Shown: positions 3,448 through 56,430 of the stretch, piece by piece
Position numbering within the stretch: the first letter of the stretch is position 1
Layout: each line of letters opens with the position of its first letter
Assembly (NCBI GenBank): GCA_016720565.1
Contig: JADKKJ010000001.1
Span: 744,929-808,928, forward strand
From: Chitinophagaceae bacterium
GTDB lineage: Bacteria; Bacteroidota; Bacteroidia; Chitinophagales; Chitinophagaceae
Length of the DNA: 64,000 bases
Direction of reading: 5' to 3'
The notes under the pieces: generated by a model
What the model was told of the DNA's origin: nothing
The model's database searches: none
What the model saw: only the letters and a program-made list of their open reading frames with translations
Translations under genes and position numbers: made by a program

Positions 3448-3452
3448 CTCTG

Positions 3453-11320: not shown

Positions 11321-11327
11321 CCGCCTG

Positions 11328-14487: not shown

Positions 14488-14490
14488 AGG

Positions 14491-14575: not shown

Positions 14576-14579
14576 GCGG

Positions 14580-14587
14580 CAAATTTA
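14580..14587 (-). promoter_or_regulatory. -7 promoter box (TAAATTTG) for tRNA-Ser
   Basis: Consensus match ending 4 nt upstream of the mature tRNA 5' end. Confidence 0.6.
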
Positions 14588-14724
14588 ACCTTCGGCTTGC
14601 TTGCGAAAAAATTTTTATAACATTTTATCACAGAAATAAGTAGGTTTTTTTTCGAAGCGGGCTTATTGGTTTTTTTTCATGCCCGAATCCTTGGTCAACG
14701 GTTAACTTTGCCACAATTTTTTAC

Positions 14725-16560: not shown

Positions 16561-16666
16561 GCCTTCCGGATTATGTTCAAAGCCGATTTGGCTGATTCAA
16601 AAACATCTCTATATTTGTGAAATACTGATACCAAACTAATTCCTTAACTGCTAAAATCTTATAAAA

Positions 16667-17110: not shown

Positions 17111-17154
17111 TTTTCAGCGTAGTATATTAAATAATTGTTAAAATATGGAATCTG

Positions 17155-17189
17155 CTCCGGCCAGCTTTTGCTGGCCGGAGTCTTTTATT
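17155..17189 (+). terminator. Rho-independent terminator
   Basis: 11-bp stem CTCCGGCCAGC-TTTT-GCTGGCCGGAG followed by TCTTTTATT. Confidence 0.8.
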
Positions 17190-17352
17190 TTAGTTGACTT
17201 ATAAGCCAAAAAAACAAATCCACACCCTGTGTAAAGATTTAAAAGTCTATGCCTTAATGTTTTTTTTGGGAATTTCTAACAAACATTTATCTTTCGGGCT
17301 GATTTCGGTTTAGCCGGAATTCGGTTAACTCAATTCATCAAAATTATTATTT

Positions 17353-29652: not shown

Positions 29653-29693
29653 TATCAAATTTAGAATTATTTGAATTACCTTTTCAGCCTATC

Positions 29694-33798: not shown

Positions 33799-33854
33799 GG
33801 AAATAATTTTAGCAAATGTAGGATATTGACCGGGTTGGGAATATCAATCAAATG

Positions 33855-35048: not shown

Positions 35049-35174
35049 TTGATCAAATTTATCGAAATAGGGGCTACGCTGGCAACAGATCGCTGTTTTT
35101 AAACGATTTGATGATCGGTCATTTGCAGATCATATCTTTTATTAAATTCACGCATTATTAAATTAAAAACTACC

Positions 35175-36650: not shown

Positions 36651-36751
36651 TCAATATCAAAGAATATGTTAATAGAACCAGCCCCCTTATTTAGCCTCTT
36701 CCCCGGCTGAATTCCCTTACCTTTGCAGCCTTGAAAACGAGGCAATACGAC

Positions 36752-38542: not shown

Positions 38543-39955
38543 TCAGCCGCGAAGGAAACGGATGATAGACATAACCGTTTCATTTTTCCACAACCATTGA
38601 CCAAGGGCATAGACCAATCCCGCAGCCACTAAAGAACTTATTAAACTGGCCAGTGCACCCCATTCAAATGTTCTCACCAACAGCACCACTGGAATGAAAA
38701 GGGAGGATACCAGCGTGGCCTGTATAAATGGCTTCCATTCCATTTTGATCTTCAGCATTACAAAAAACACTCCCATGATAAATGTTTCCGTACATAAAGA
38801 GGCTATGGCTGCTCCCTGTTCACTAAGTATTGGGATGAGCAGGAAATTAAGTGAAAGGTTGAGTAACAGGGCCAGGCTTACCATCCACCATATCCAGCGG
38901 GCCTTTGAGAACTTCGAGAGGTAATACATCAGGAAAAGATTGCTTAAGGTGATCAGCAGCGGCAGGGGTGATAACCATTGTATTACTGCAATGGATGGGC
39001 TGAAAGCTTTTCCGGCAAAGACTTCTATCAGTTCAGGCGCCAGCAGGATGAACAATGCCATGGCAGGAACAGCGATCGTGAAAATAAAATTCAATGACCT
39101 GCCCAACAGGTGCAGCGCTTCCTGTTTTTTTTCCTCCGCTTCAAACCAGGAAAAACGTGGGAATAAAATTGTATTGATCACTATCACCAGCGAAAGGGAC
39201 AGTCGCACCAGCTTCATGGCTGTAGTATAATAACCCACCTGTTCATCATTGGCGAGCCAACCCAGCATCACTGTATCTGTAAAATCATAAATACTGATAA
39301 AAGTGGAAGCGATGAAAAAATAGAACAGTACCGGGAACTGTATGCTGAATTTTTCAGGAGGGCCTGACCTCCGAAGGGAAGGTGAGATGTAAAATATATT
39401 GATGAATAAAGTTGCCAGTTGCGTGAGTGCGATGATGGCATAATAGATCCTGTAATGTTCGGCCCCATGCAATAAAAGGAAAATAGCAGCCAGTCCGGCC
39501 ACCCTTAAAATGATATTCCTGACCGCCATAAAACGAAAGGCTTCCATGCCCTGCAGGTACCAATCGGCAGCCAAAACATTGGAAAGGATATAGGTAATTC
39601 CCAATGCTATTAAGAATGGTTCCTGGTGATAGCGCGGATGCATATATAGAAATCCTGCGAAGAAAAGGCAACCGATCGCTGCCAGCAGGCTATGCCAGCG
39701 TAACAATGAAAAAAGAAGTTGCTGACGTAAGGCAGGTTCATTCTTTGCACGTGCGATCTGCCTGGTTCCATATAAGGGGATTCCGAGGCAGGTTAGACTG
39801 ATCACGAGGTTAGCCAGGAAATCAACATAATTCACTTTGCCGATCATGGCAGGCCCCAGGGTGGAGGTTATATATGGAAAAGTAACCAGTGGAAAGACCA
39901 GGCTGGTTATAGCTGAAAAAAGCTGGTAACTGAAATTATGTTTGAGGTCTTTCAA
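38543..39955 (-). CDS. Wzx/RfbX-type flippase
   Basis: LKHNFSYQL..FPLVTFPYITSTLGP..GIPLYG, WYLQGMEAF, VGYYTTAMKL, GAAIASLCTE. Confidence 0.9.
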   Translation of the reverse strand: MKDLKHNFSYQLFSAITSLVFPLVTFPYITSTLGPAMIGKVNYVDFLANLVISLTCLGIPLYGTRQIARAKNEPALRQQLLFSLLRWHSLLAAIGCLFFAGFLYMHPRYHQEPFLIALGITYILSNVLAADWYLQGMEAFRFMAVRNIILRVAGLAAIFLLLHGAEHYRIYYAIIALTQLATLFINIFYISPSLRRSGPPEKFSIQFPVLFYFFIASTFISIYDFTDTVMLGWLANDEQVGYYTTAMKLVRLSLSLVIVINTILFPRFSWFEAEEKKQEALHLLGRSLNFIFTIAVPAMALFILLAPELIEVFAGKAFSPSIAVIQWLSPLPLLITLSNLFLMYYLSKFSKARWIWWMVSLALLLNLSLNFLLIPILSEQGAAIASLCTETFIMGVFFVMLKIKMEWKPFIQATLVSSLFIPVVLLVRTFEWGALASLISSLVAAGLVYALGQWLWKNETVMSIIRFLRG

Positions 39956-39979: not shown

Positions 39980-40969
39980 TCAATTCTCCCTACCATCATT
40001 CACCTTGTCTTTTTCTTTTCCGCGATTCTTATCGCTTTTTTCCTGGAGTTTTTGTTCGTTCCTGTTTCCTTTAGGATCCAGCAATGGGTCGCCCACAGGA
40101 ACTTCTCCATCTTTTAGTTTCAGGGTAAATACTTTGTCAACATGTATCCATTTACCGTTTTCCCATTTAAAACCTTCCTGGTCACCATCAGGGATCAGCG
40201 TTTGGGGAAGGTCGGGCTGATCTGTTTCCGACACCAGGTGATCAACCAGTATTATACCCAGGTCGGGGATATAATTTACCAATACGCGGGTATCTTTCTT
40301 GAACTCTATGCCAAAGCGATATTTTGTTGGGCCAGGCAGGCTATCCTGCTCATAACTGAAAAAAGGCCCGCCAAACAGAGGTTCATTTTTATCGTTGAAA
40401 GTCAATACTTCCATCCATTTCATGGAACTCTGTACGCCATTCGGATCGAATCCGAAAAGTGTATAATAATTTTTATTGCGGAATTGGGTCTTCACCATAT
40501 TGTAATAAACAGCGCCGATCCAGTTCCCTCTTGTCCTTACAGAATCCTCCGGTTTCGTAGTGAACTCAGAATAATCGCGCAGGGGTAAAAGTTTAAGGGA
40601 ACCATCGGTTGTTTTCATTTGAATGGCACCACGCTGGCGATGGTAATAATCATCATACGTGATGTTCCAGGTAAATATGCGGAAGCTGCTATCAGGGGAA
40701 TATAAATGGGAAATACCGATCACTGAATCGAAAGGATAATAAAATGAGTTCCTGATCTGAAGGGCCCTTACCAGGGTCTTGGTGAATATGCTGTCGGATA
40801 CCATCCGATCCGCCTGCAAACTATCTGTATTAAGGTATATGGAATATTCCTTCAGGGTATCCTCTTTAGCTTTTAGAGCCCTTACATCGGCCGCACTGAT
40901 CTTCACTCCCTGTGCCTGCAGGGTATGAACGTAACAGAAAGCAATAAGAAAGAAAAAGATGGATTTCAC
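39980..40969 (-). CDS. Conserved hypothetical exported protein
   Basis: 329-aa ORF with signal peptide; SPDSSFRIFTW and WIGAVYY motifs; no function recognised. Confidence 0.8.
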   Translation of the reverse strand: MKSIFFFLIAFCYVHTLQAQGVKISAADVRALKAKEDTLKEYSIYLNTDSLQADRMVSDSIFTKTLVRALQIRNSFYYPFDSVIGISHLYSPDSSFRIFTWNITYDDYYHRQRGAIQMKTTDGSLKLLPLRDYSEFTTKPEDSVRTRGNWIGAVYYNMVKTQFRNKNYYTLFGFDPNGVQSSMKWMEVLTFNDKNEPLFGGPFFSYEQDSLPGPTKYRFGIEFKKDTRVLVNYIPDLGIILVDHLVSETDQPDLPQTLIPDGDQEGFKWENGKWIHVDKVFTLKLKDGEVPVGDPLLDPKGNRNEQKLQEKSDKNRGKEKDKVNDGREN

Positions 40970-41084
40970 TGGTTTGTTTTAACAGGACAAAAATACATAG
41001 ATAAGAGATGTTCAGGCCGGGGCTGCGGGTTGCATACCTGGTCACGCTGGCTTAGGTCGGGTATTTAACGGAAAGGCCGCTGAA

Positions 41085-42347
41085 TTAGTATGATAAATTT
41101 CCTAAATGCCTGGCAACCTCTGGAAGGCCGGGGAACTGCCAGTCGATATCCGCATGGGGAAATGGCATTTCAGGGTTGGTGGTGGTCACAAATACGCTGA
41201 AAATACCCGCATTCCGGGCAAATCGCATGTCGCTGGGCTTATTACCGATCATAATGGTCTTTTCCGGATCTATACCGGGATCTTCTTCAAAGGCCTGGAA
41301 AGCCATACCGGGGTTGGGTTTACGCCGTTCGTCTTTATCGTCCATGGAGGTGCAGAAATATATTTCATCGATCCTTCCTCCAGCCTCTTTTATCTTTTTT
41401 CGCATTTGGAGATGGATAGATTCCAGGTCATTAAGACTCATCAGTCCTTTACCGATCCCCCGCTGGTTAGTGATCACAATTATCTTTCCCAGTTTCCGGG
41501 ATAATAAAGCAAGGGCTTCAGGCACTCCCTCATAAAAAATGAATTCTTCCCAGTTCAACACATATTCATTCTTTTTTTCGTGATTGATCACTCCATCACG
41601 ATCGATCAGGATCGTCCATTGCTTATCCAGTTCACGCAGAGAGGGTAGTTTCCTTGCCAGGTCTTCCTGCGCCTTTTGAAAATCTTCAGGTATGCCAATA
41701 TCTATAAAATAGCCGTCATCTCTGATCCCCTGGAAATGTCCCTGGTCATAATGCGCTTCCAGGTATTCTTTTTCAAAGGAAAATTTTTGCGGGTATCCTC
41801 TTTGTAAAAACCGGACAGGATCCAGCACATATAATCCACCATTGATATTTCCTTCCGTAAAAAATTGTTTTTCGCGAAAAATGCTGACGATGTCCTTTTG
41901 ATCTGTTTCCACCACACCATACCGGTCGAAATCGCGCATTGGCTTTAAAAGAAGAGAACATTCCGCTCCGGATCGTTCATGCCTGTCCCAGGCTTTTTTA
42001 AGGTTTGCTTTATATAAAGTATCTCCATTGGCTACTACCACGGTTATTCCCTGGCAAAATCTGGCTGCAAGTTGTATGGCCCCGCCCGTACCCAGTGGTT
42101 CATCTTCCAGGCAGTGAACATAATTGAGCGTGGGGAATTCCTGTTCGAGGTAATTTAAAATGATATCTGACCTATAACCCAGGGAAAAAATAAAACGGTT
42201 GATGCCCTGGCTGCGAAGCTGGTTGATCACATAAAAAAGGAAGGGCCTGCCTGCCACAGGGGCCATGCATTTAGGAAGATCCGGAACGGCGGACCTGAGC
42301 CTGGTTCCCAATCCACCCGCTAATATGATGGCTTCTTTTATAAACAT
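41085..42347 (-). CDS. Fused heptose-1-phosphate guanylyltransferase (HddC-like) and heptose-1,7-bisphosphate phosphatase (GmhB-like, HAD IIIA)
   Basis: N-terminal AIILAGGLGTRL..LPKCMAPVAGRPFL, EPLGTGGA, FIDIGIPED; C-terminal LIDRDGVIN, ITNQRG, RKPNPGM, MIGNK. Confidence 0.88.
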   Translation of the reverse strand: MFIKEAIILAGGLGTRLRSAVPDLPKCMAPVAGRPFLFYVINQLRSQGINRFIFSLGYRSDIILNYLEQEFPTLNYVHCLEDEPLGTGGAIQLAARFCQGITVVVANGDTLYKANLKKAWDRHERSGAECSLLLKPMRDFDRYGVVETDQKDIVSIFREKQFFTEGNINGGLYVLDPVRFLQRGYPQKFSFEKEYLEAHYDQGHFQGIRDDGYFIDIGIPEDFQKAQEDLARKLPSLRELDKQWTILIDRDGVINHEKKNEYVLNWEEFIFYEGVPEALALLSRKLGKIIVITNQRGIGKGLMSLNDLESIHLQMRKKIKEAGGRIDEIYFCTSMDDKDERRKPNPGMAFQAFEEDPGIDPEKTIMIGNKPSDMRFARNAGIFSVFVTTTNPEMPFPHADIDWQFPGLPEVARHLGNLSY

Positions 42348-42938
42348 TCAGGAACCAGGTTTTTCCGAAGGAAAAATAGCTTCTTCCACCAGCTGGCAAA
42401 CGATATGTCCAATGGTGATATGGCTTTCCTGTATTCGCGGAGTATCACTGGAAGGAACATTTACGAGGAGATCGGAGATGGATCTCATTTTTCCTCCCGA
42501 CTCACCGGTGAATCCAATGGTGATCATGTTTTTTTCTTTCGCCACTTCAAATGCCTTCAGGATATTAGGAGAATTTCCCGAAGTGGATAACCCGATCAGT
42601 ACATCGCCTTCTCTGCCTATACCATCAATCAGCCTGGCAAAGACCATGTCATACCCATAATCATTTCCTACCGCGGTGAGGTAAGAGCTATTACAATGCA
42701 GGGCTTCCGCAGGAAGTGCTTTCCTGTCAGTATAAAACCTCCCTGAAAATTCGGCCGCCAGGTGCTGCGCATCAGCTGCGCTACCTCCATTTCCGCAGAA
42801 ATATACCCTGTTGCCTTTTTGAAAGGCTGTCGTAACTGTCTTTACGATCTTATCAATGGTCTCCAATAAAACTGGATCATTGATGATCTTTGCTTTCGTA
42901 TCAATGGAGGCGGCTATTATCTGTTGAATCCTATTCAT
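42348..42938 (-). CDS. gmhA: Sedoheptulose-7-phosphate isomerase
   Basis: FCGNGGSAADAQHLAAEF, GNDYGY, LSTSGNS, PRIQESH. The start could be 42959 instead. Confidence 0.96.
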   Translation of the reverse strand: MNRIQQIIAASIDTKAKIINDPVLLETIDKIVKTVTTAFQKGNRVYFCGNGGSAADAQHLAAEFSGRFYTDRKALPAEALHCNSSYLTAVGNDYGYDMVFARLIDGIGREGDVLIGLSTSGNSPNILKAFEVAKEKNMITIGFTGESGGKMRSISDLLVNVPSSDTPRIQESHITIGHIVCQLVEEAIFPSEKPGS

Positions 42939-42992
42939 AAAATAAACTTTAGCACTCACTTATTATCTCAAACCTGTAATTTGAACTCTAAA

Positions 42993-43012
42993 CCTGCTTA
43001 CCTGCAGGCAGG
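42993..43012. repeat. 20-bp imperfect palindrome CCTGCTTACCTGCAGGCAGG (REP-like)
   Basis: CCTGC/GCAGG termini with an internal CCTGCAGG palindrome; intergenic. Confidence 0.65.
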
Positions 43013-43050
43013 CTCCTAACTCCTAACTCCTAACTGGTAACTCCTAACTA
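43013..43050. repeat. Heptamer tandem array (CTCCTAA)3-CTGGTAA-CTCCTAA-CTA
   Basis: Read directly; 5.4 units ending 2 nt from the hddA stop codon. Confidence 0.95.
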
Positions 43051-43052
43051 TT

Positions 43053-44075
43053 TTACACGCTCCAGGTCTTCACCCCATGTTCCACAAACTGGAAATTGCG
43101 GCTTTGACCGCCGAATTTTTCCAGCTCTTCTCTAACAGCGTATTTGGTATTGCCGGGACAATAAAATATCATGAAGCCTCCACCACCGGCACCGGATATT
43201 TTTCCTCCGGTAGCACCTGCTGATTTTGCGGCGGTATAAATATCTTCCATCAGTTCATTGCTGATCCCTTCGGCCATTTTCCTTTTTTGCTGGAAACCAA
43301 AATCAAGGATCTCGCCGATCTGGTTCAATTTGCCTTTCAATAAAGCCTCTTTCATCATCTGGGCCTGTTCTTTCAAAAGATGCATGGCCTCTATGGAGCT
43401 TTCTTTTTTATCAGTCACATTCCGGCTTTGCTTTTTGATCAACTCTGCGGATTCACGACTGGTTGCCGTATAATATAAAAGCAGGTTGTTCTCTAATTCA
43501 AATAAATGCTGTTGCCTTACGCGGAGGGGGTTCACGATCACTTTATCATCGCCAAAAAATTCCATAAAATTCACACCCCCGAAAGTGGCGGCATACTGGT
43601 CCTGTTTTCCCCCGGCAAGCCCAAGGTCCTTTCTTTCAATTTCGTAGGCATAATGGGCCATATCATATTCCCCGAAGGCGAGCCGGTGCATTTCCGCGAA
43701 GGCCCCAATAATGGCTACCACAAGGGTAGAGGACGTGCCTAAACCAGAGCCTGCGGGCGCATCAACATAGGTGCTTAACTTAAACCCCTGAGGCTTTAAT
43801 TGATAATCTTGCTGGATCCGGTTATATACTCCCTTCAGCAGATCGAGTTTACCGTTAACAGGTAATTTGGTTGCCCACTCATAGCTTTCTTTCTCATTAC
43901 GGTCAATGGTATGCAGGACGATCTTGTTTTCTTCAATAGGCTCAATAGTGGCATGGGCATATAACGAGAGGGTGGCATTCAAAATGGCTCCGCCGTAGAG
44001 GTCGCTGTAAGGACTTACATCCGTACCTCCTCCTGCCAATCCTATCCTTAAGGGAGCTTTACTACGATATAACAT
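43053..44075 (-). CDS. hddA: D-glycero-D-manno-heptose-7-phosphate kinase (GHMP family)
   Basis: RSKAPLRIGLAGGGTDV, PAGSGLGTSS, GGKQDQYAATFGG, GGKISGAGGGGF. Confidence 0.9.
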   Translation of the reverse strand: MLYRSKAPLRIGLAGGGTDVSPYSDLYGGAILNATLSLYAHATIEPIEENKIVLHTIDRNEKESYEWATKLPVNGKLDLLKGVYNRIQQDYQLKPQGFKLSTYVDAPAGSGLGTSSTLVVAIIGAFAEMHRLAFGEYDMAHYAYEIERKDLGLAGGKQDQYAATFGGVNFMEFFGDDKVIVNPLRVRQQHLFELENNLLLYYTATSRESAELIKKQSRNVTDKKESSIEAMHLLKEQAQMMKEALLKGKLNQIGEILDFGFQQKRKMAEGISNELMEDIYTAAKSAGATGGKISGAGGGGFMIFYCPGNTKYAVREELEKFGGQSRNFQFVEHGVKTWSV

Positions 44076-44083
44076 GAATGGGA

Positions 44084-45190
44084 TCAGATTTGGGTGATCG
44101 CTGTCACCAGATTTGACCAGCTATAGCGCTGTTTTTCACTGCGAAGATGAGGAATAAAATAATCTTCACCTAATTGGTAGAACCTCCTGATCCCCTCTGC
44201 GATCGCGGCAGGATTTGGTTCCACTACCAGGCCTACTTTTCCATCAGGAACCAGGTCTGGCAGGCCTCCCACATTCGTAACGACCATTGGCTTTTCAAAA
44301 TGATAGGCGAGGGGCGTGACGCCACTTTGTGTGGCATTTCGGTATGGCTGTATCACGGCATCTGCTGCGCTCAGGTAATATTTTACTTCACTGTCGGGAA
44401 TAAAATCAGTTCTTAATATGAGTTTATCCTTTAGTCCCAGGATTTGGATCTTTTCCAGGTATGGTTTTGCATCCTCATAAAACTCTCCAGCCACCAGTAG
44501 TTTAATATCATCCAATTCTTTCATGGCTTCCAGCAGGAGGTCGAGTCCTTTGTAATGACGTATGAATCCAAAGAATAAAATGATATTCTGTTCCGCAGAT
44601 AGTCCTAAATGTTTCCTGGCTTCTGCTTTATTAACTGCCGGACCAAAATTGTCATACAAGGGGTGTGTGACCAGTTTTGCAGGTTTATCTTTTTCAAACT
44701 GGCGAAGGTCCATCATCACTTTTTCACTCATGGTAATAAATCCATCGCAGGCCTTTAAAAAATAGCTGGTGAATGGCCGATCTCCCGGCCTTTTCTCATG
44801 GGGGATCACATTGTCTGCAATGCATACGATCCTTGTATGTTTATTTTTTCGTACCCTTCTGAGAATAGTTCCCAGCGCAGGCCCCATGAAGGGGAGCCAG
44901 AAGCGTACTACGATAAGATCAGCCATTTCTTTTTTCAATCTGTTGCCAATGCTTATCCAATTCAAAGGGTTCACTGAATTGATCACAGAATGGATGCGTA
45001 TGCCCTCTGGCGCAGGTTCATCAGTGTATTGGGTTTTACCGGGAAATAAAAAAGAAGGGTATTGCAGGGAAAATGAATAAATGGAACAGTCATGCCCCTG
45101 GTCGATGAATTCTTTGGCCAGCCGTTGATCAAAACTTGCCAGTCCGCCCCGAAGCGGATGTGCAGGTCCGATAATAATGACCTTTGCCAT
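44084..45190 (-). CDS. Glycosyltransferase family 4
   Basis: IIGPAHPLRGG, FFGFIRHYKGLDLL, YRNATQSGV..VTNVGGLPDLV. Confidence 0.92.
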   Translation of the reverse strand: MAKVIIIGPAHPLRGGLASFDQRLAKEFIDQGHDCSIYSFSLQYPSFLFPGKTQYTDEPAPEGIRIHSVINSVNPLNWISIGNRLKKEMADLIVVRFWLPFMGPALGTILRRVRKNKHTRIVCIADNVIPHEKRPGDRPFTSYFLKACDGFITMSEKVMMDLRQFEKDKPAKLVTHPLYDNFGPAVNKAEARKHLGLSAEQNIILFFGFIRHYKGLDLLLEAMKELDDIKLLVAGEFYEDAKPYLEKIQILGLKDKLILRTDFIPDSEVKYYLSAADAVIQPYRNATQSGVTPLAYHFEKPMVVTNVGGLPDLVPDGKVGLVVEPNPAAIAEGIRRFYQLGEDYFIPHLRSEKQRYSWSNLVTAITQI

Positions 45191-46131
45191 TAAAGTCCTG
45201 TTTTGGTTTCAACCAGGTAGCTGTTTCGTGAAGGTGAATTTCTTGCGATCAGTTCACCAATAAAACCTGCCAGGAATAATTGCATACCTATAATGAGGGA
45301 AGTCAGCGCCAGGAAAAAGCCGGGCTTGTTCGTTAGTGAAAAATCAGCATGTATGATCTTTGAAACAACCAGGTAAATGGATATCCCTAATCCAAGCATA
45401 AAGAATAGCATACCCCAGAGGCCGAAAAAATGCATGGGGCGTTTGGAGAATTTACCAACGAAGGTGATGGACATGATATCCAGAAAACCATTGACAAATC
45501 TTCTCCATCCAAATTTTGACCGGCCATATTTCCGGGCACGATGCTCCACTACTTTTTCGCCGATCTTTTTAAAGCCGGCCCATTTTGCCAGTACGGGGAT
45601 ATAACGATGCATCTCTCCATAGACCTCCACACCTTTTACGGTGCGGTTGCGATAGGCCTTGAGTCCGCAATTGAAATCATGTAAATGAATACCGCTGACC
45701 ATGCGCGTAACGGCGTTAAAGAATTTAGAAGGAATATTCTTGGTAAGGGTATTATCGTAGCGTTTCTTTTTCCATCCGCTGACAAGGTCAAATTTATCTT
45801 CTATGATCATCCTGCGCAGTTCAGGTATCTCATCCGGACTATCCTGCAGGTCGGCATCCATGGTAATGACCACATCGCCACTTGCCGCACGAAATCCTTC
45901 ATTAAGTCCGGCGGATTTTCCATAATTACGCTGGAATTTGATCCCTTTTATGCATGGATTGGAAGCTCTGAGTTGTTCGATCACTTCCCAGGAATTATCA
46001 CTGCTGCCATCATCTACGAATATGATCTCGTAGGTGAAATTATTTTCTTTCATCACCTTTTCGATCCATGCGGAAAGTTCGGGCAATGATTCAGCTTCGT
46101 CTATCAGTGGTATTACTAAACTTAGATCCAT
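45190..46131 (-). CDS. Glycosyltransferase family 2, polyprenol-phosphate (GtrB/ArnC/DPM1-like) type
   Basis: FVDDGSSD, FQRNYGKSA, TMDADLQD, HDFNCGLKAY; two C-terminal TM helices. Confidence 0.92.
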   Translation of the reverse strand: MDLSLVIPLIDEAESLPELSAWIEKVMKENNFTYEIIFVDDGSSDNSWEVIEQLRASNPCIKGIKFQRNYGKSAGLNEGFRAASGDVVITMDADLQDSPDEIPELRRMIIEDKFDLVSGWKKKRYDNTLTKNIPSKFFNAVTRMVSGIHLHDFNCGLKAYRNRTVKGVEVYGEMHRYIPVLAKWAGFKKIGEKVVEHRARKYGRSKFGWRRFVNGFLDIMSITFVGKFSKRPMHFFGLWGMLFFMLGLGISIYLVVSKIIHADFSLTNKPGFFLALTSLIIGMQLFLAGFIGELIARNSPSRNSYLVETKTGL

Positions 46132-46132
46132 G

Positions 46133-46600
46133 TTATTTTCTTCTGCTTAAAAAGGCCGCTGCGCCTGCTGAAAAAGCGGCTCCTATTATCAAATATCTGA
46201 AAATTGAAATGGAAACCATGGCCAAAGCGTATTGTTTTTTCGCTTTCCTGGCAATATCCTCGATCTCCAAAGGTGTTTTATCTCCTTTTTCCTGGTAGTA
46301 CCGGATAGTGGCTGCTTTTTCCTGCTCCGCCAGTTCCGGATGAAACTGAATAAAAATGAACGTAAAGCTTACCATGAATATGGTAACCACAATGAAATGC
46401 CGGAAGGCGGTGGCAAATAGCTGGCCGAAACTACCTGAAATGCCAATAAGTGTCCAGACAATACCCACCAGGTAGATCAGGTAAATAAAATATTGCAGGT
46501 TGGGGTTTAGCTGTTCGTGCCATTTGTCGTAAAGAAGACTCGCAGCGATCATTATAATTGCCGTGATCACTGCTTTTATGGCGGGTGAAAGATTCTTCAT
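46133..46600 (-). CDS. DUF4199-like 4-TM membrane protein
   Basis: Four hydrophobic helices with a soluble loop before the last; its ATG overlaps the upstream TGA (ATGA). Confidence 0.7.
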   Translation of the reverse strand: MKNLSPAIKAVITAIIMIAASLLYDKWHEQLNPNLQYFIYLIYLVGIVWTLIGISGSFGQLFATAFRHFIVVTIFMVSFTFIFIQFHPELAEQEKAATIRYYQEKGDKTPLEIEDIARKAKKQYALAMVSISIFRYLIIGAAFSAGAAAFLSRRK

Positions 46601-47865
46601 GATGCTATAAAATGGCAATGGCCATTATTGATGATGCCCAGGGGTTTTCCTTTAAATGCCTTTCCGATGAATGGCGTATTGCGCGACAGGCTTTTTATAT
46701 CATTACCGGTAAATGTCCAGTTTCTGTTTGGATCGAACAAACTGATACAGGCGGTATTCCCTTCGCGTATGGTTGCCGGGTCCATTTTAAATATCCTTCT
46801 CGGATTGATTGCGAGCATATCCACCAGTTTTGCAACCGGTATTCCATCCACAGCAGTTGCCAGTACGGCGAAGGCTGTTTCCAGTGCTATCATTCCTGGT
46901 TTGGCGTATTCAAATTCAAGGACCTTGCTGTCATTCTCATGTGGCAGGTGATGGGAGGCGAGGCAATCTATTTCCCCGTTCAGGATAGCCTGTTTTAAAT
47001 TCTCTCTTTCCTGGCTGCTTCGAAGGGGAGGGTTTAGTTTGAAAATACTGTCATAGCCCGATACATCCTCATCGCAGAAATAGAGGTGGGCAGGTGTTAC
47101 TGAGCAGCTCACACGTATGCCTTCTTTTTTTGCCTTGGTTATATAGTCGAGGGAACGGCGGGTACTGATACCTGTAAGATGTATAGAAGAATTGGTATAC
47201 TGGGCCAGGTTGATATCTCTTTCCACCATCAATTCCTCTGCCATCGATGGCTTGCCGGCAAGTCCCAGCCGGGTGGAAGCGATCCCCTCATTCATCAATC
47301 CATGGGCGCCGATGGTCTTATCTTCAGGAACCTGTATGATCACGCCTTCAAATGCTTTTACATACTGAAGCGCTTTAAGCAGTAAACCGGATGATTGAAT
47401 ACAATGAAGCCCGTCGCTGAATGCGATGGAGCCACTATTCTGCATATCATACATCTCTGCCAGCTCTTTGCCTTCCGTATTATTGGTAACCGCGCCGAGC
47501 GGATGGATGTTTACTGCAAGATCCCTGCTTTTTTGCTTGATATATTCAACCGATGATTTATTATGGATAACTGGCTTGGTATTCGGTATCACAAATACAT
47601 CGGTGAAACCTCCGGCTGCTGCGGCGGCGGCACCCGACAAAAGCGATTCTTTATGTTCAAATCCCGGATCGGCGAAATCAGAAAATATATCCACCCATCC
47701 TGGTGATATATGCAGACCCTCTGCCTTTATGATCTGATCAGCATCAGCATCAATATTTTTATTTATACGGGTGATCTGGCCATTTTCAATGAGCAGGTCG
47801 ATGGTTTGGCCGTTGTGTGGGGATAGTGGGTCTATGACCCTTGCTTGCTTAATGAGTAGCTTCAT
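46597..47865 (-). CDS. Dihydroorotase-fold protein, predicted catalytically inactive
   Basis: Overall type-I DHOase pattern (AAAGGFTDV..PNTKP, KLNPPLR), but the motifs read DIFSDFADPG, QVPED, TGIST and ASHHLPH instead of DxHxHxREPG, HCED, CHIST and TDHAPH. Confidence 0.85.
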   Translation of the reverse strand: MKLLIKQARVIDPLSPHNGQTIDLLIENGQITRINKNIDADADQIIKAEGLHISPGWVDIFSDFADPGFEHKESLLSGAAAAAAGGFTDVFVIPNTKPVIHNKSSVEYIKQKSRDLAVNIHPLGAVTNNTEGKELAEMYDMQNSGSIAFSDGLHCIQSSGLLLKALQYVKAFEGVIIQVPEDKTIGAHGLMNEGIASTRLGLAGKPSMAEELMVERDINLAQYTNSSIHLTGISTRRSLDYITKAKKEGIRVSCSVTPAHLYFCDEDVSGYDSIFKLNPPLRSSQERENLKQAILNGEIDCLASHHLPHENDSKVLEFEYAKPGMIALETAFAVLATAVDGIPVAKLVDMLAINPRRIFKMDPATIREGNTACISLFDPNRNWTFTGNDIKSLSRNTPFIGKAFKGKPLGIINNGHCHFIAS

Positions 47866-47943
47866 TAAGGATCGAAGTTACTTGTTTTTTTGATTTTAAT
47901 ATTGGCATTTTTGGTGCTACATTTGCCCCCCTTACCGGTAGTT

Positions 47944-48017
47944 CGGGTGGTGGCGCAGCCCGGTAGCGCACTTGCATGGGGTGCAAGGGGTCGCTGGTTC
48001 GAATCCAGTCCACCCGA
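47944..48017 (+). tRNA. tRNA-Pro(GGG)
   Basis: CGGGTGGTGGCGCAGCCCGGTAGCGCA-CTTGC-ATGGGGT-GCAAG-GGGTCGCTGGTTCGAATCCAGTCCACCCGA; TACATTTG promoter at 47918-47925. Confidence 0.97.
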
Positions 48018-48028
48018 CATTGTAAAGG

Positions 48029-48062: not shown

Positions 48063-48611
48063 TTACTGAGCCCGCTCCATACAGGCAGTACGCAGCCTTA
48101 GCATATAAGCAAGGCCTTTTTGCCTGGCATAAGCAGCGTTTTTTTCCGGGATCTGACTGGTATCCGGGTAACTGTCGATAGCACGACTCAGGCTTTCCTC
48201 CCTTAAAATATGAAGCATTGGGTAGGGAGAACGATTGGTATAGTTTGCTGCATCATTTTCGTTGCTGTCTGCAAATATATAGGCGGGATGAAAAGAAGCT
48301 ACCTGGTAAATGCCTTCATATCCGGCTTTCTTTATCAGTAACTCTGCGCCATGTACCAGTTTTAAATATTCTGAAAAACTTTCAAAGTTCTGAGGTAACA
48401 ATAAAAACATGGTTTCAATTTCTTCCTCTGTATCCATTTTTACCAGCGCTGCAGACAAGGCTTTCAGGGCGATCACATTAGTTCCTGCAATCACCTCAAA
48501 ATAAATACTTTCCTTTTTCACCTCCCGAATTGCAAAAGGACAAAAGTTACAGCCTACCACCACATCGAGAATCCATTTTTTTGTTTGTGATATTATGAGA
48601 GTATTGTTCAT
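48063..48611 (-). CDS. DUF1415 family protein
   Basis: TKKWILDVVVGCNFCPFA, YQVASFHP.Y.F, YTNRSPYPMLHILRE.S. Confidence 0.9.
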   Translation of the reverse strand: MNNTLIISQTKKWILDVVVGCNFCPFAIREVKKESIYFEVIAGTNVIALKALSAALVKMDTEEEIETMFLLLPQNFESFSEYLKLVHGAELLIKKAGYEGIYQVASFHPAYIFADSNENDAANYTNRSPYPMLHILREESLSRAIDSYPDTSQIPEKNAAYARQKGLAYMLRLRTACMERAQ

Positions 48612-48652: not shown

Positions 48653-49921
48653 TTAATGATCATTCAGGGGCAATCCTTTTTTCTGCCAATCGATCCAGTT
48701 CACATACTCATCAGATTTCCGGTGAACTTCCATGCTGATACATTTATCTACGGGACAAACCAGCTGGCATAGATTGCAACCAACACATTCTCCTTCGATC
48801 ACTGTGTATTTGTTATAGGGGTCGCCATACTCTTTATGGATTGATTGATGAGAAGTGTCCTCGCAGGCGATATAACATAAGCCGCAATGAATGCATTTAT
48901 CCTGGTCGATCTTTGCAATATGATGGTAATTGATATCGAGGTCTTCCCAATGCGTTATCTTCTCTACTGACTTCCCGATGAAATCTTCTGTTCGGGTAAA
49001 TCCCTTTTCGTCCATCCAGTTGCTCATGCCTTCGCAAAGATCTTCAATGATCCTGAATCCATGTTTCATGGCGGCTGTGCAGATCTGCACATTGGAGGCA
49101 CCCAGCAACATGAATTCCACCGCGTCTTTCCAGGTACTGATACCACCGATCCCTGATACAGGAACTTTTGAGGTCAGTTCATCCTGGGCTATCGTGGTCA
49201 GCATTTTTAATGCGATCGGTTTTACCGCAGGTCCGCAATAACCACCAAAAACTGATTTGCCTGCTACAAAAGGATTCGGTACTAAGGTATCCAGGTCGAT
49301 GCCCGTTATTGATTGTATGGTATTGATAAGTGAAAGGCCATTTGATCCTGCCTTGACAACGGACCTTCCTGTAGGAACTACAGAATGTACATTGGGGGTA
49401 AGCTTGGTGATCACTGGAATAGTGGCCACCTCCATTACCCATTCTACCACCATACAGGCGATCTCAGGGTCCTGGCCCACAGCTGCACCCATTCCTCGTT
49501 CAGTCATTCCATGCGGACATCCGAAATTAAGTTCCAATCCATGCGCGCCGGTATCTTCCACTTTTTTGATCAGTTCGTGCCAGCTCTTCTTACGGTTGTC
49601 GGCCATTAATGAAACCACCATGGCCCGGTCCGGGAATAATCGGATACATTCTTTGATCTCTCTTAAATTCAGGTCCAGCGGACGATCCGAGATCAGTTCA
49701 ATATTGTTGAAACCCATTACCCGGTGACCTCCAAAATCTACTGCAGAATAACGGGAAGAAACATTTTTTACCTGTGAGCCAAGGGTCTTCCAGACTACAC
49801 CACCCCAACCGGCTTCAAATGCACGAAGTACATTGTATTTTTTATCCGTGGGTGGGGCAGAGGCCAGCCAGAACGGATTTGGGGATTTTATGCCCAGGAA
49901 ATTTGAATGCAGATCAGCCAT
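48653..49921 (-). CDS. preA: NAD-dependent dihydropyrimidine dehydrogenase subunit PreA
   Basis: NPFWLASAPPT, WGGVVWKT, ELNFGCPHGM, KLTPN; two C-terminal 4Fe-4S motifs CIHCGLCYIAC and CVGCNLCQLVCP. Confidence 0.96.
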   Translation of the reverse strand: MADLHSNFLGIKSPNPFWLASAPPTDKKYNVLRAFEAGWGGVVWKTLGSQVKNVSSRYSAVDFGGHRVMGFNNIELISDRPLDLNLREIKECIRLFPDRAMVVSLMADNRKKSWHELIKKVEDTGAHGLELNFGCPHGMTERGMGAAVGQDPEIACMVVEWVMEVATIPVITKLTPNVHSVVPTGRSVVKAGSNGLSLINTIQSITGIDLDTLVPNPFVAGKSVFGGYCGPAVKPIALKMLTTIAQDELTSKVPVSGIGGISTWKDAVEFMLLGASNVQICTAAMKHGFRIIEDLCEGMSNWMDEKGFTRTEDFIGKSVEKITHWEDLDINYHHIAKIDQDKCIHCGLCYIACEDTSHQSIHKEYGDPYNKYTVIEGECVGCNLCQLVCPVDKCISMEVHRKSDEYVNWIDWQKKGLPLNDH

Positions 49922-49947
49922 AATTATTTTTTTATCGACCTGATTAG

Positions 49948-51282
49948 TTAAGAAATAAAATCAAGGATCGCCATAGCGCCTTTTTTCCCGGCTTCCACAG
50001 CGTCTACTACCTCTTTACCACCATTCACTGCATCTCCACCGGCAAATACACTTCTGATGTTCGTTGAATGATCCTTGTTTATCACCAGTTTTCCATGTTC
50101 GTGGTCCAATCTATTCGCACCAACCAGTGATTCAAAAGGCACTTGACCGGCGGCTTTTATTACCATGTCCGTATCAAGTTCCATGGTCTCACCGGTATCA
50201 ATAATTGATCTTCTTCCTGAATGATCCGGCTCTCCTGGTTTCATAACAGAACAGATGAGCTTTTCCACTTTACCATTTCCAACGATCTGTTTTGGTGCTG
50301 CCAGCCAAACTATCTCACAACCATCTTTTTTAGCCAGGTCGAGTTCTACTTCTGTGCAGGGCATTTCATTTTGTGTACGACGATAAACGATGGTCACTTG
50401 TTTTGCACCTAATCTTTTTGCCTGTGTGGCCGCATCAATAGCGGTCATTCCTAAACCGATCACCACTACATTGTCACCAACCGGTACAGGGGAAAACCCC
50501 TCATTTCTTATCTGGTAAATAAAATGGATCGCATCTACCACGCCATTCAATTCTTCGCCGGGTATATTTAATTGGCGGGCCAGTCCTACACCAAATGCAA
50601 GGAATACGGCATCATAATTTCGTTGCAGGTCGGCCAGGGAAAGATTCCTGCCAAGTTCCTGTTCATAATTGATCTGGATTCCCCCAATTGAAAGAATATA
50701 ATTCACTTCTTCTTCGCAGAATCGAGGAGTGACCTTATAAGCGGCAATGCCATAGGTCATTAAACCACCTCCTTTTTTTTCTTTTTCATAAATGCTTACT
50801 TCAATGCCTTCCCTGCTTAATGTATGTGCGCAACTTAATCCTGCAGGGCCAGCGCCGATAACGGCCACTTTTTTCCCGGTGTCCGGTTTACGCTGGAACA
50901 ATGGCCATTTTTTTTCGAGGGCCATTTCTGTAGAATATCGTTGCAGCCTGGCAATAGGGATAGGTTCCTCTTCCAATAGATTATATACACAGGAGCCTTC
51001 GCATAGTTTTTCTACCGGGCATACACGACTGCAACCTGCGCCCAGAATATTTGAACTGAAAATAGTATGCGCCGAACCTTTGATGTTATTTGTAGCGATC
51101 TGTTTGATGAATTTTGGAACATCAATATGCGTAGGGCAGCGCTTCATGCATGGTGCATCATAACAGAACAGGCACCTGTTCGCATCTACCTGCGCAGCAG
51201 TTATAGAATCATAGGGAGGATGCAGGTCCGAAAAATTCTCGGCATATTGTTCCTCACTCAGTCTGTTATTTAAGATCGCCAT
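49948..51282 (-). CDS. preT: Dihydropyrimidine dehydrogenase subunit PreT (GltD-like)
   Basis: CLFCYDAPCMKRCP, CSRVCPVEKLCEGSC, GAGPAG; adjacent to preA. Confidence 0.93.
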   Translation of the reverse strand: MAILNNRLSEEQYAENFSDLHPPYDSITAAQVDANRCLFCYDAPCMKRCPTHIDVPKFIKQIATNNIKGSAHTIFSSNILGAGCSRVCPVEKLCEGSCVYNLLEEEPIPIARLQRYSTEMALEKKWPLFQRKPDTGKKVAVIGAGPAGLSCAHTLSREGIEVSIYEKEKKGGGLMTYGIAAYKVTPRFCEEEVNYILSIGGIQINYEQELGRNLSLADLQRNYDAVFLAFGVGLARQLNIPGEELNGVVDAIHFIYQIRNEGFSPVPVGDNVVVIGLGMTAIDAATQAKRLGAKQVTIVYRRTQNEMPCTEVELDLAKKDGCEIVWLAAPKQIVGNGKVEKLICSVMKPGEPDHSGRRSIIDTGETMELDTDMVIKAAGQVPFESLVGANRLDHEHGKLVINKDHSTNIRSVFAGGDAVNGGKEVVDAVEAGKKGAMAILDFIS

Positions 51283-51291
51283 GTTTTATTT

Positions 51292-52158
51292 TTAAAGTTC
51301 AACCAGTTTGCCATAGGTCTCCGGCCTGCGGTCGCGGAAAAACTGCCAGGTAGCCCTCACTTCTTCAATCATATCCAGGTCAAAATCAGCTACCAGTAAT
51401 TCATCTTTGTCTTCGCTGGCCTGCGCGAATATCTGTCCGCGCGGATCAACGAAATAAGAACTGCCATAGAATTTACCCAGGTTCCAGGGTTTTTCTGTTC
51501 CCACCCGATTAATGCAGCCCATGAAATAACCATTGGCCGCCGCATGGGCAGGTTGTTCCAGTTTCCATAAATACTGAGAAAGACCGGCTACCGTAGCAGA
51601 AGGGTTATATACGATCTCGGCGCCATTCAATCCTAATATACGCGCGCCATCAGGGAAGTGCCGGTCGTAACAAATATAAACCCCCACCTTAGCGTATTTG
51701 GTTTGAAAAACAGGATAGCCCAGGTTACCGGGTTTAAAAAAGAATTTCTCCCAGAATCCCGAGGTATGAGGAATATGGTTCTTACGGTATTTTCCAAGAT
51801 AAGTTCCATCCGCATCGATCACTGCTGCTGTATTGTATAAAACGCCGGCCTGTTCTTTTTCAAAAATGGGAACGATCATTACCATGCTGTATTTTTTCGC
51901 ATACTCCTGCATCCTTTCTACGGTAGGGCCAGGAATGGGTTCTGCCGAATCATACCAGGCCTTATCCTGTCCCGGGCAGAAATAAGGAGTATTGAATATT
52001 TCCTGCAGGCATAAGATCTGAACACCTTTTTTGCCCGCTTCTTCGATCAGTGGAATGTGTTTTTGCAACATGGCTTCTTTGATCTCGGCAATACTTCCTT
52101 CACCTTCTGTTAATGGAAGACTCATTTGAATCAGGCCTGAGCGAATGATCCTTGACAT
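51292..52158 (-). CDS. Nitrilase-family beta-ureidopropionase (beta-alanine synthase)
   Basis: Glu-Lys-Cys triad LQEIF, YRKNHIP, ICYDRHF; operon context. Confidence 0.9.
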   Translation of the reverse strand: MSRIIRSGLIQMSLPLTEGEGSIAEIKEAMLQKHIPLIEEAGKKGVQILCLQEIFNTPYFCPGQDKAWYDSAEPIPGPTVERMQEYAKKYSMVMIVPIFEKEQAGVLYNTAAVIDADGTYLGKYRKNHIPHTSGFWEKFFFKPGNLGYPVFQTKYAKVGVYICYDRHFPDGARILGLNGAEIVYNPSATVAGLSQYLWKLEQPAHAAANGYFMGCINRVGTEKPWNLGKFYGSSYFVDPRGQIFAQASEDKDELLVADFDLDMIEEVRATWQFFRDRRPETYGKLVEL

Positions 52159-52169
52159 AGTTTTAATTT

Positions 52170-53549
52170 TTATCCGTTAGTATGTTTGCTTCTTTTAATG
52201 AACTGGCCATATCCTTTTTCCAGTTTACATTCATTATGGTCTATAGCTATTTTTCCCCTGAGTAAAACCGTTTTTATTTTTCCCTGCAGTTCCCATCCTT
52301 CATACCCGGAATAATCCACATTCATATGATGGGTGGCAGCAGCTATACGATGCTTTTCAGTTGGATCCATAATGATGATATCGGCATCACTGTCTACAGC
52401 AATGGTTCCTTTGCGGGGAAACATGCCAAATATTTTTGCCGCATTGGTGGATGACACCTCAACATATTTATTCAACCCGATCCTGCCCTTATTCACTCCT
52501 TCTGAAAAAAGCAGTTCCATCCGGTTCTCAATGGCAGGATGCCCGTTGGGTATTTTAGAAAAATCTTCTTTGCCCATTAATTTCTGTTCCCATTTAAACG
52601 GGCAATGGTCGGTGGCCACTACATTCACGATGCCCTGGTTGATACCTGCCCATAATGTTTCCTGGTCTTTTTTCTGGCGAAGGGGAGGGCTCATTACCCA
52701 TTTGGCGCCTTCAAAATCCATTTCATACAAAGAGGCATCCAGCAAAAGATATTGTATGCAGGTCTCCACATGAACCTTCTGGTTTCTGAGTAAGGCCTGG
52801 CGTATCGCATTCAATGCTCCTTCGCAGGTAAGGTGAACAATATAGCCCGGGCATCCGGTGTAATGCGCCATATCCGCAAAACGCTCTGTGGCTTCTGCCT
52901 CTGTGATCTCTGGCTGCGATAAGTAATGATAAAGGGGGGATAGTTTTCCTTCTGCCCGGTGTTTAGCTACCAGGTAATCGATCATATCGCCATTGGTGGC
53001 ATGTACATTAATGAAACCGCCCCATTTTTTAACTTCCTCCATCAGGCCGATCATCTGTCGGTCGTCAATCATTAGTGCCCCTTTATAGGCCATAAATGTT
53101 TTGAAGGAAGTAATGCCTTCTTCCTCGATCAATCCCCTGATCTCTTTTTGGGTTTCTTCATTAAAATCGGTGACGGCCATATGGAAACTATAATCGCCCA
53201 CACAATTATTATCTGAACGGCTTCTCCATTCATTCAGTGCTTCGGCCAGGGAATGGCCCTGCTTTTGCAAAATGAAATCGATCACCATAGTAGTGCCGCC
53301 AAATAACGCGGCCCTGGTTCCTGTCTCATAATTATCGCTGCTGTAGGTACCCATAAATGGCATATCCAGGTGCACATGCGGATCTATTCCCCCGGGCATC
53401 ACCAGTTTTCCAGTGGCATCGATCACGGTGTCTGCGTTGGCCGGCAGGTCTTTTCCAATGGCAATGATCTTTTCTCCATCAATAAAAATATCTGCCACAT
53501 AATCATCGGTAGCGGTGATGATCCTCCCGTTTCTGATCAGTGTTGTCAT
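52170..53549 (-). CDS. hydA: Dihydropyrimidinase
   Basis: PGGIDPHVH, SFKTFMAYKG, HATNG, IVHLTC, VATDHCPF; all metal ligands intact. Confidence 0.96.
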   Translation of the reverse strand: MTTLIRNGRIITATDDYVADIFIDGEKIIAIGKDLPANADTVIDATGKLVMPGGIDPHVHLDMPFMGTYSSDNYETGTRAALFGGTTMVIDFILQKQGHSLAEALNEWRSRSDNNCVGDYSFHMAVTDFNEETQKEIRGLIEEEGITSFKTFMAYKGALMIDDRQMIGLMEEVKKWGGFINVHATNGDMIDYLVAKHRAEGKLSPLYHYLSQPEITEAEATERFADMAHYTGCPGYIVHLTCEGALNAIRQALLRNQKVHVETCIQYLLLDASLYEMDFEGAKWVMSPPLRQKKDQETLWAGINQGIVNVVATDHCPFKWEQKLMGKEDFSKIPNGHPAIENRMELLFSEGVNKGRIGLNKYVEVSSTNAAKIFGMFPRKGTIAVDSDADIIIMDPTEKHRIAAATHHMNVDYSGYEGWELQGKIKTVLLRGKIAIDHNECKLEKGYGQFIKRSKHTNG

Positions 53550-54985: not shown

Positions 54986-55002
54986 TAAATTTTTATTTCT
55001 GT

Positions 55003-56346: not shown

Positions 56347-56388
56347 GATCCTTTTTTGAATTATTAGCAATTTATTCGGTACTGTCTT

Positions 56389-56430
56389 CAGGCAGGCCCT
56401 AATCTCTAATCCCTAATCTTGTATTCTAAT
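56389..56430. repeat. CAGGCAGG followed by a degenerate heptamer array CCCTAAT-CTCTAAT-CCCTAAT-CTTGTAT-TCTAAT
   Basis: Read directly; the array abuts the mmsA stop codon. Confidence 0.8.

Follow-up and report, generated by a model that had tools for sequence, protein, structure and literature searches.

A same-strand glycosylation block and its conservation

The subject of this analysis is a block of genes on the minus strand of a 64,000-nt stretch of DNA (the window, in which all positions are given) from an uncultured member of the Chitinophagaceae that occurs in metagenomes of wastewater and activated sludge. From 47865 down to 41085, seven genes had been read in an original prediction as a coupled envelope-glycosylation operon: a pseudo-dihydroorotase (pDHO), a small membrane protein of the DUF4199 family, a GT2 and a GT4 glycosyltransferase, and three genes for a GDP-heptose pathway (hddA, gmhA and an hddC-gmhB fusion). 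All seven lie where they had been placed, and Pfam, NCBIfam and PDB matches agree with the identities proposed: a pseudo-dihydroorotase, DUF4199, an ArnC/GtrB-type GT2, a GT4 and four GDP-heptose activities. The unit as first drawn was incomplete in that it missed an eighth conserved gene, here called unk329, which follows the fusion on the same strand.

Every junction claimed in the original prediction was found in the sequence. pDHO (46597-47865, 422 aa) and DUF4199 (46133-46600, 155 aa) share an ATGA overlap at 46600-46597. DUF4199 is separated from GT2 (45190-46131, 313 aa) by a 1-nt gap at 46132 (median 3 nt among relatives), GT2 overlaps GT4 (44084-45190, 368 aa) by 1 nt in a TAATG at 45190, and GT4 is followed after an 8-nt gap (44076-44083) by hddA (43053-44075). 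The coupling, with overlaps or gaps of no more than 8 nt, runs all the way from pDHO to hddA. A spacer of 114 nt (42939-43052, minus strand) then precedes gmhA (42348-42938), which abuts the fusion gene (41085-42347) as TGA/ATG at 42348/42347, and a further 115 nt separate the fusion from unk329 (39980-40969). The hddA-gmhA spacer holds a 7-nt tandem repeat (CTCCTAA, period 7, 5.3 copies at 43013-43049 by Tandem Repeats Finder, its single occurrence in the window) and a small hairpin, then UUUAGAGUU; the hairpin has a fold z-score of -2.2 and is weakly terminator-like. Short heptamer or purine/pyrimidine-rich tandem repeats were also seen in intergenic regions of the block in several relatives, examples being GTTAGGA in the window spacer and CTCCCGA or CTTCC-type runs upstream of pDHO (loci L014, L017 and L022 of the scan described next).

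Relatives were collected in two ways. A scan of species-representative genomes anchored on pDHO gave 529 relatives, of which the best 80 were analysed, all Chitinophagaceae or metagenome-assembled genomes (MAGs) labelled no more precisely. A metagenome scan with the back-translated pseudo-active-site motif added 120 further loci at 34-66% identity. In every locus, open reading frames (ORFs) were assigned by comparison with the proteins of the window and with a hidden Markov model (HMM) of DUF4199. The original prediction would have been given up if its genes were unlinked in related genomes; instead, the same gene order recurs in ~200 related loci, most of them from Chitinophagaceae, and the arrangement therefore lies far beyond chance. 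Together with the overlaps and small gaps, this recurrence bears out a tightly coupled same-strand glycosylation cluster.

Conservation is uneven along the block. Directly after pDHO, the HMM recognises DUF4199 in 79/83 genome loci and 69/86 metagenome loci, and when an unassigned ORF with four transmembrane (TM) helices in the same slot is counted too, the figures are 83/83 and 84/86. GT2 follows in all 75 genome loci scored and in 45 of the 47 metagenome loci, and GT4 in 66/68 and 30/34 (about 95%). GmhA was present in 51 of 56 genome loci and 7 of 10 metagenome loci, and HddA in 41 of 56 and 3 of 10, while unk329 ends the block in 50/56 and 8/10, respectively. pDHO, the DUF4199 or four-TM protein and GT2 form its nearly invariant core. 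Terrimonas rubra (L053) has this trio only, and another locus (L022) the trio and GT4 only.

One Chitinophagaceae MAG (L069) carries two complete, diverged copies of the block head to head, at 3435-9423 (minus) and 10001-18095 (plus). The copies are 46-73% identical gene by gene, including pDHO, DUF4199 and unk329; one has a full heptose cassette and the other GmhA and GmhB only, and a gene for a PMT_2-type GT-C glycosyltransferase lies beside the second copy. Since the whole block is present twice in diverged form, it behaves as a unit in inheritance and duplication. Outside the family, PG0311 (GT2) and PG0312 (DUF4199) of Porphyromonas gingivalis are adjacent and have been reported as one regulated unit (PMC10434189). 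With about even confidence, and on the strength of gene content and order, we read the genes as a conserved Chitinophagaceae block for envelope glycoconjugate biosynthesis, built around an undecaprenyl-phosphate-sugar branch, with parts that would reach the wider Bacteroidota.

The promoter-like -7 box TAACTTCG sits 7 nt before the pDHO ATG (47873-47880, minus strand), where the original prediction had it, and proved to be a conserved element. Among 159 related loci, 108 have a TAnnTT[CT]G box 4-20 nt before the pDHO ATG (TATCTTCG in 76 and TAACTTCG in 12); box and ATG stand exactly 7 nt apart in 72 of these loci, and 15 nt apart in a further 19. At such spacing, the pDHO mRNA would be leaderless or have a very short leader. 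Exact TAnnTTTG boxes also stand 5-25 nt before many other starts in the window (11313-11320 and 14703-14710, plus strand; 33813-33820 and 35054-35061, minus; 36718-36725, plus), and a divergent tRNA-Pro gene upstream of pDHO has its own box, TACATTTG (47918-47925, plus strand), 18 nt before it. The total of 43 such boxes in the window against 55 expected is not above chance, so that their positions are informative and their count is not. These positions suggest that very short or absent 5' leaders may be common in this organism.

Within the block, -7 boxes are rare in the upstream junctions of the relatives: 0/81 between pDHO and DUF4199, 0/73 between DUF4199 and GT2 and 3/68 between GT2 and GT4. 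A perfect Bacteroidota -7 box, TATTTTTG (TAnnTTTG; 40988-40995, minus strand), lies 18 nt upstream of unk329 as a candidate internal promoter. Because of this box, the whole block is probably not transcribed as one single operon; a tight core transcript of four to five genes is likely, with the later genes more loosely attached. Metatranscriptome contigs show expression: one contig spans the GT2/GT4 junction (45117-45271), and two runs hold 6-10% of the sequence words, with small contigs in GT2 and unk329.

The pDHO-DUF4199-GT2 trio

pDHO belongs to TIGR00857 (pyrC_multi, 361 bits), and its closest solved homologue is the Aquifex dihydroorotase (DHOase; 3d6n, 43% identity, E 5e-90). In this alignment, the six metal-binding or catalytic positions of the Aquifex enzyme, H61, H63, D153, H180, H232 and D305, are occupied by F61, D63, G152, V179, G232 and H305. 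None of the six is kept, and the metal ligands and catalytic Asp of a type I dihydroorotase are thus gone. The replacements are fixed across orthologues: F61, G152, P180 and H305 are each found in 86/86 orthologues and G232 in 77/86, and the former active-site region as a whole is strongly conserved, with D59, F61, N95, G152, P180, H305 and H306 invariant or nearly so. Judged by this pattern, the pseudoenzyme is old and stable and has kept its pocket conserved, and its gene is not decaying.

The main alternative to a role in glycosylation, which we regard as unlikely, is that the block is a mosaic of separate units that share a location and perhaps a promoter. pDHO would then be the partner of an aspartate transcarbamoylase (ATCase), like PyrC' of the Pseudomonas class A enzyme; DUF4199 and GT2 would form one pathway, GT4 and the heptose genes would supply an O-antigen, capsule or core made elsewhere, and unk329 would be unrelated. 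Inactive DHOases are established as ATCase partners (PMC4581275, PMC7053772), and the Aquifex DHOase itself works in a complex with ATCase. Like PyrC', pDHO is a homologue of type I DHOases, ~420 aa long, with its zinc ligands gone and the gene stably retained. The variability of the heptose cassette, the candidate promoters before unk329 and sometimes before gmhA or hddA, and a pyrimidine catabolism operon just upstream in the window and in several relatives point the same way. Against this, the four-TM gene and GT2 come after pDHO at practically all loci, overlapping or only a few nt apart, and the upstream pyrimidine genes are lacking in L005, the closest relative, as they are at most loci. 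The Pseudomonas pyrB and pyrC' genes overlap, whereas no ORF with the ATCase/ornithine transcarbamoylase signatures S[TS]RTR and HP[TSC]Q was found in ~200 loci or in the 64-kb window, in what was a motif test rather than an HMM search. Unlike PyrC', the pDHO of this type is unlinked to pyrB in these loci and is invariably coupled and co-duplicated with DUF4199 and GT2. The original prediction had conjectured that the protein may act as a scaffold or ligand sensor. Its duplication along with the glycosylation genes in L069 favours a role in the glycosylation module over one as an ATCase partner. Because it is translationally coupled to DUF4199, holds an invariant position, is co-duplicated with the module and is never near an ATCase-like gene, pDHO most likely serves a membrane complex, either as a subunit without catalytic activity or as a regulator that binds a ligand.

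The second member of the trio matches DUF4199 (PF13858, E 8e-10). Its true start is the ATG at 46600, because homologues begin MKNLSP or MRNISP. The AlphaFold2 model (pLDDT 90) has helices at residues 6-27, 33-51, 58-86, 89-105 and 110-154. Four of the helices are long and hydrophobic, and a conserved HPE motif and an amphipathic helix lie between the third and the fourth. The protein is thus a small four-TM inner-membrane protein encoded directly upstream of a GtrB-type GT2. The original prediction had likened it to the flippase GtrA, a likeness that neither sequence nor fold backs: the Pfam scan returned no GtrA hit at E<=10, hhalign of the DUF4199 profile with P22 GtrA gave a probability of 0.2%, and a Foldseek search of the model against PDB found no match (best E 0.49). 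The analogy with GtrA rests on size, four TM helices and the place upstream of GT2. By the same kind of analogy, DUF4199 may be the membrane partner of GT2, and an activator like GacJ and a flippase like GtrA or ArnE/F are equally possible. A literature search on DUF4199, PG0311-0313, pseudo-DHOases and GDP-heptose in Bacteroidota found no functional study, DUF4199 being named in one paper of the library searched, in a table. One metagenome locus (L117, 6160-7222) has two tandem DUF4199 genes between pDHO and GT2.

The GT2 protein (PF00535, 1e-30) is of the ArnC/GtrB/GacI type. Such enzymes charge polyprenyl phosphate with a single sugar, taken from a nucleotide sugar, at the cytoplasmic face. 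Full-length PDB matches are to ArnC (9hwj, 2e-41; residues 3-297 on 10-297), to Synechocystis GtrB (5ekp, 2e-29; residues 2-298) and to dolichyl-phosphate-mannose synthase (5mlz), and identity with P22 GtrB is 26% end to end (E 1e-30). The translation carries the DxD motif DADLQD (VVITMDADLQDSPDE) and two C-terminal TM helices, so that both a GT-A domain with DxD and the full-length architecture of polyprenyl-phosphate glycosyltransferases are present. On its sequence, GT2 is a polyprenyl-phosphate glycosyltransferase. It scores 167 bits against the ArnC equivalog NF007986, whose cut-off is 529, and is thus ArnC-like rather than an orthologue of ArnC. Its best 120 listed matches are 86-100% identical, and those with names come from Chitinophagaceae, Chitinophagales or Bacteroidota. 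P. gingivalis GtfF (PGN_1668) was considered as an orthologue and set aside: it is flanked by purL and smf, near porK-N, a setting at odds with that of PG0311/PG0312, and no mapping between them was confirmed.

The ArnC likeness raises another possibility, that of an Arn-like pathway in which GT2 makes an undecaprenyl-phosphate N-acyl-aminosugar, pDHO is a repurposed de-N-acylase analogous to ArnD, DUF4199 is a flippase like ArnE/F, and the product is placed on lipid A or the LPS (lipopolysaccharide) core. The amidohydrolase superfamily includes sugar deacetylases. ArnC is the best match of GT2 in both NCBIfam and PDB, and the closest homologue that is both characterised and solved, and the Arn system also joins a GT2, a hydrolase-type protein and small four-TM flippase subunits; the conserved former active site of pDHO and the conservation of the trio at housekeeping level would fit as well. 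We nevertheless consider this pathway quite improbable. The six canonical pDHO positions are now non-metal-binding residues (F, G, V/L/I, G) or variable N/H/D, ArnD belongs to a different fold family, GT2 falls far under the ArnC cut-off, the window has no ArnT-type GT-C gene, and the block has none for ArnA or ArnB.

GT4, the heptose cassette and the flanking genes

GT4 is a retaining GT-B enzyme (PF00534, PF13692) with weak matches to characterised glycosyltransferases (MshA-like 3c4q, 2e-8; WaaG, 3e-6). The heptose genes that follow it are better placed. HddA finds its best family in NF049969 (404 bits) and matches solved heptose-7-phosphate kinases (3k85, 7e-109; WcbL 4usk, 1e-97; 4n3o, 4e-96). 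GmhA, the sedoheptulose-7-phosphate isomerase, just passes TIGR00441 (209.7 bits against a cut-off of 209.45; PF13580, 8e-27); its most likely start is the ATG at 42938, which gives 196 aa and agrees with the call in the closest relative, and a GTG at 42959 is an alternative opening. The fusion (420 aa) joins a heptose-1-phosphate guanylyltransferase (NF049965 HddC, 205 bits, residues 4-226) to a heptose-1,7-bisphosphate phosphatase (GmhB/HAD-IIIA, residues 245-397), with PDB matches to Yersinia pseudotuberculosis HddC (5xhw, 4e-40) and GmhB (4pnh, 2e-21). Close relatives share this fusion, whereas more distant relatives encode HddC and GmhB as separate proteins.

All four activities of a GDP-heptose pathway (isomerase, GHMP-type 7-phosphate kinase, 1,7-bisphosphate phosphatase and 1-phosphate nucleotidyltransferase) are thus encoded, as in the known pathway, with strong matches to solved HddA/WcbL and HddC. 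The set departs from that pathway in the HddC-GmhB fusion, in scores below equivalog level (HddA 404 against 600 bits, HddC 205 against 300, GmhB 121 against 178) and in its place as an evolutionarily labile cassette within a conserved, non-capsule block. The assignment to heptose families is sound; specificity for GDP would follow from family membership.

The original prediction had taken the heptose genes as an integral part of the operon, and here the comparison told otherwise. The cassette always lies between GT4 and unk329, and its content is of four kinds: HddA-GmhA-HddC-GmhB with HddC and GmhB fused or split, GmhA-HddC-GmhB, GmhA-GmhB only, or nothing. Reduced cassettes are scattered on the pDHO tree, which points to repeated loss. 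The obvious candidate for using the heptose is GT4, but the assignment is weak: GT4 persists where the cassette is reduced or absent and so need not transfer heptose.

It could also be GT2 that uses the GDP-heptose, a sugar manno-configured like GDP-mannose, to make undecaprenyl-phosphate-heptose, so that heptose would reach the periplasm on the lipid carrier. This would be the most tightly joined form of the coupled module in the original prediction. In its favour, dolichyl-phosphate-mannose synthase, a homologue of GT2, uses GDP-mannose, and most Chitinophagaceae have the GDP-heptose genes in the same block. This, too, is improbable. The trio occurs without any heptose gene in T. rubra and in L022, L013, L030, L113, L124, L205, L207 and L196, GT2 is 62-88% identical irrespective of cassette content, and GT4 separates the cassette from GT2. 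For P. gingivalis the record extends only to the adjacency of PG0311 and PG0312.

The product of unk329, the eighth gene of the block, is a secreted protein of 329 aa from an unannotated family; its N-terminus resembles a signal peptide. The protein has no Pfam or NCBIfam hit. It has 4551 homologues, and its family, of proteins of ~300 aa, is large, with 1855 clusters at 50% identity. When 52 diverse members were searched against Pfam, no family domain emerged, the two isolated hits (Trypsin_2 and COX_ARM) being confined to single members, and profiles of the family found no match among PDB sequences. Five D-S-[LIV] motifs, at D49, D59, D81, D142 and D209, are invariant in close homologues and match the Bacteroidota O-glycosylation sequon, so that unk329 may itself be a periplasmic glycoprotein. 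A 313-aa protein downstream in a distant locus (L003) was tried as a relative of unk329, and comparison showed no relationship.

Beyond unk329, 24 nt further on the same strand, lies a gene for a Wzx-like flippase of the MOP family (38543-39955; PF01943, 3e-26, with weak NCBIfam hits to Wzx_EPS, MurJ and an O-glycosylation Wzx). The statement in the original prediction that no wzx lies inside the operon thus stands for 41085-47865 and fails just past it. This gene follows unk329 only in L005, L049, L083 and L124, as a lineage-specific addition. The slot between unk329 and lepA varies by lineage and may hold the Wzx-like gene, a Wzm/Wzt ABC exporter pair, a PMT_2-type GT-C (adjoining the block in L016, L028 and L069) or a sulfatase-family membrane protein. 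In the window, lepA (plus) and the Wzx-like gene (minus) converge back to back at 38542/38543 with zero intergenic bases and no room for a terminator.

At the other end, the block is bounded by the divergent tRNA-Pro(GGG) gene (47944-48018, plus strand; ARAGORN and Rfam), and a divergent tRNA stands upstream of pDHO in many relatives as well. An Rfam scan of the window found two tRNAs and nothing else. Beyond tRNA-Pro come a DUF1415 gene (48063-48611) and then a complete operon for reductive pyrimidine degradation (48653-57887, minus strand), with genes for an aldehyde dehydrogenase, a class III aminotransferase, a cytosine/uracil-type permease, a dihydropyrimidinase, a CN-hydrolase of the beta-ureidopropionase type, PreT and PreA. 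PreT and PreA are both encoded upstream of pDHO in L001, L009, L010, L019 and L049, PreA alone in L051 and L166, and neither in L005. Elsewhere in the window, 28672-29658 (minus strand) encodes a homologue of bacterial inward-rectifier-type potassium channels, with Ion_trans_2 and an IRK_C cytoplasmic domain.

A proposed undecaprenyl-phosphate-sugar branch with additional partners

In the proposed envelope-glycoconjugate block, GT2 would load one sugar onto polyprenyl phosphate, and once the lipid-linked sugar had been flipped, a GT-C enzyme from another locus would use it in the periplasm. DUF4199 would be the obligate small membrane partner of GT2, either as a GacJ-like activator or as a carrier-lipid flippase in the manner of GtrA or ArnE/F, and pDHO would belong to the membrane complex on its cytoplasmic side, as a subunit without catalysis or a regulator that binds a ligand. 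On the cytoplasmic side, GT4 would add an alpha-linked sugar to the same glycoconjugate, in cassette-bearing lineages most likely heptose, and in the periplasm unk329 would act on the product or receive it. In the window genome, the Wzx-like protein would export the lipid-linked intermediate and could supply the flippase. Periplasmic use of a lipid-linked sugar agrees with the GT-C gene that three relatives have beside the block. The final acceptor may be the core of LPS or lipooligosaccharide, an O-glycoprotein or a glycolipid.

Several observations weigh against this reading: (i) no GT-C gene lies within the 64-kb window, and one adjoins the block in those 3 loci only; (ii) with neither GtrA homology nor a structural match, DUF4199 has been given both of its proposed roles by analogy; (iii) many lineages retain GT4 and unk329 but have no cassette, or one of GmhA-GmhB only; (iv) -7 boxes, as candidate internal promoters, occur before unk329 in 21/52 relatives, before gmhA in 13/58 and before hddA in 9/49; (v) the few low-depth metatranscriptome contigs that make up the RNA evidence do not suffice to delimit transcripts; and (vi) the structure prediction for unk329 is poor (pLDDT 47, from a 41-sequence alignment that is too shallow). 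Also, (vii) in an AT-rich, Flavobacteriia-like metagenome contig with relA/spoT and fur in its context (L196, 320-3868), purA, pDHO and GT2 stand in a row with a second GT2 next, and pDHO abuts the ArnC-like GT2 with DUF4199 absent. The pDHO of this contig retains the pseudo-active-site motifs GWxDF..F.DPG and SSHHQP.

Two further known systems, besides Arn, can be set beside the block. Like GtrA-GtrB-GtrC of phage P22 and the Shigella phages, it has a small four-TM gene directly upstream of an undecaprenyl-phosphate-sugar GT2, overlapping or nearly abutting (in P22, gtrA and gtrB come in this order with a 4-nt overlap). Unlike in the Gtr system, the small protein is non-homologous to GtrA and has the conserved HPE motif and a helical insert of ~40 residues, and the block lacks a GtrC-type GT-C and adds pDHO, GT4, heptose genes and a secreted protein. 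The Gac system, for the side chain of the streptococcal group A carbohydrate, includes a Wzx-family protein, GacK. Its GT2 GacI is bound and stimulated by the small membrane protein GacJ, and GacL is its GT-C (bioRxiv 10.1101/180810). As in GacI-GacJ-GacK-GacL, the window has a GT2, a small membrane protein and a Wzx-like gene, and a few relatives have an adjoining PMT_2 GT-C. Unlike here, the Gac system is Gram-positive, and pDHO, GT4, the heptose cassette and unk329 have no counterpart in it; the likeness of DUF4199 to GacJ is one of size and position. By analogy, the block may work like the three-component undecaprenyl-phosphate-sugar systems (Gtr, Arn, Gac/Csb), with the unrelated partners pDHO, DUF4199 and unk329 and an attached GT4/GDP-heptose branch. 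The enzymology of the named parts is ordinary, and the interesting part is their conserved association with a pseudoenzyme and two unknown families.

A bolder form of the proposal, which we put forward as tentative and rather doubtful, is that pDHO, DUF4199 and GT2 form a three-part membrane machine that is widespread in Bacteroidota. A dead enzyme of the pyrimidine pathway would serve in it as a ligand-sensing or scaffolding subunit of the undecaprenyl-phosphate-sugar synthase and would link envelope glycosylation to the status of nucleotides or nucleotide sugars. DUF4199 would represent a new family of partners of such synthases, whether activators or flippases, and unk329 would stand at the periplasmic end.

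Envelope glycans of Bacteroidota (LPS or lipooligosaccharide, general O-glycosylation and glycolipids) shape host interaction, phage sensitivity and type IX secretion, and many steps of their synthesis have no assigned genes. The block offers three handles on this biology: a nearly invariant, coupled trio with two unknown partners, a large unannotated family of secreted proteins, and the repeated gain or loss of a GDP-heptose cassette as a natural experiment. The PG0311/PG0312 counterparts in P. gingivalis, a tractable pathogen, make the idea of the trio testable by ordinary knockouts. Should the three proteins work as one complex, they would add a case in which membrane glycosylation has recruited a pseudoenzyme, and DUF4199 would have its first function.

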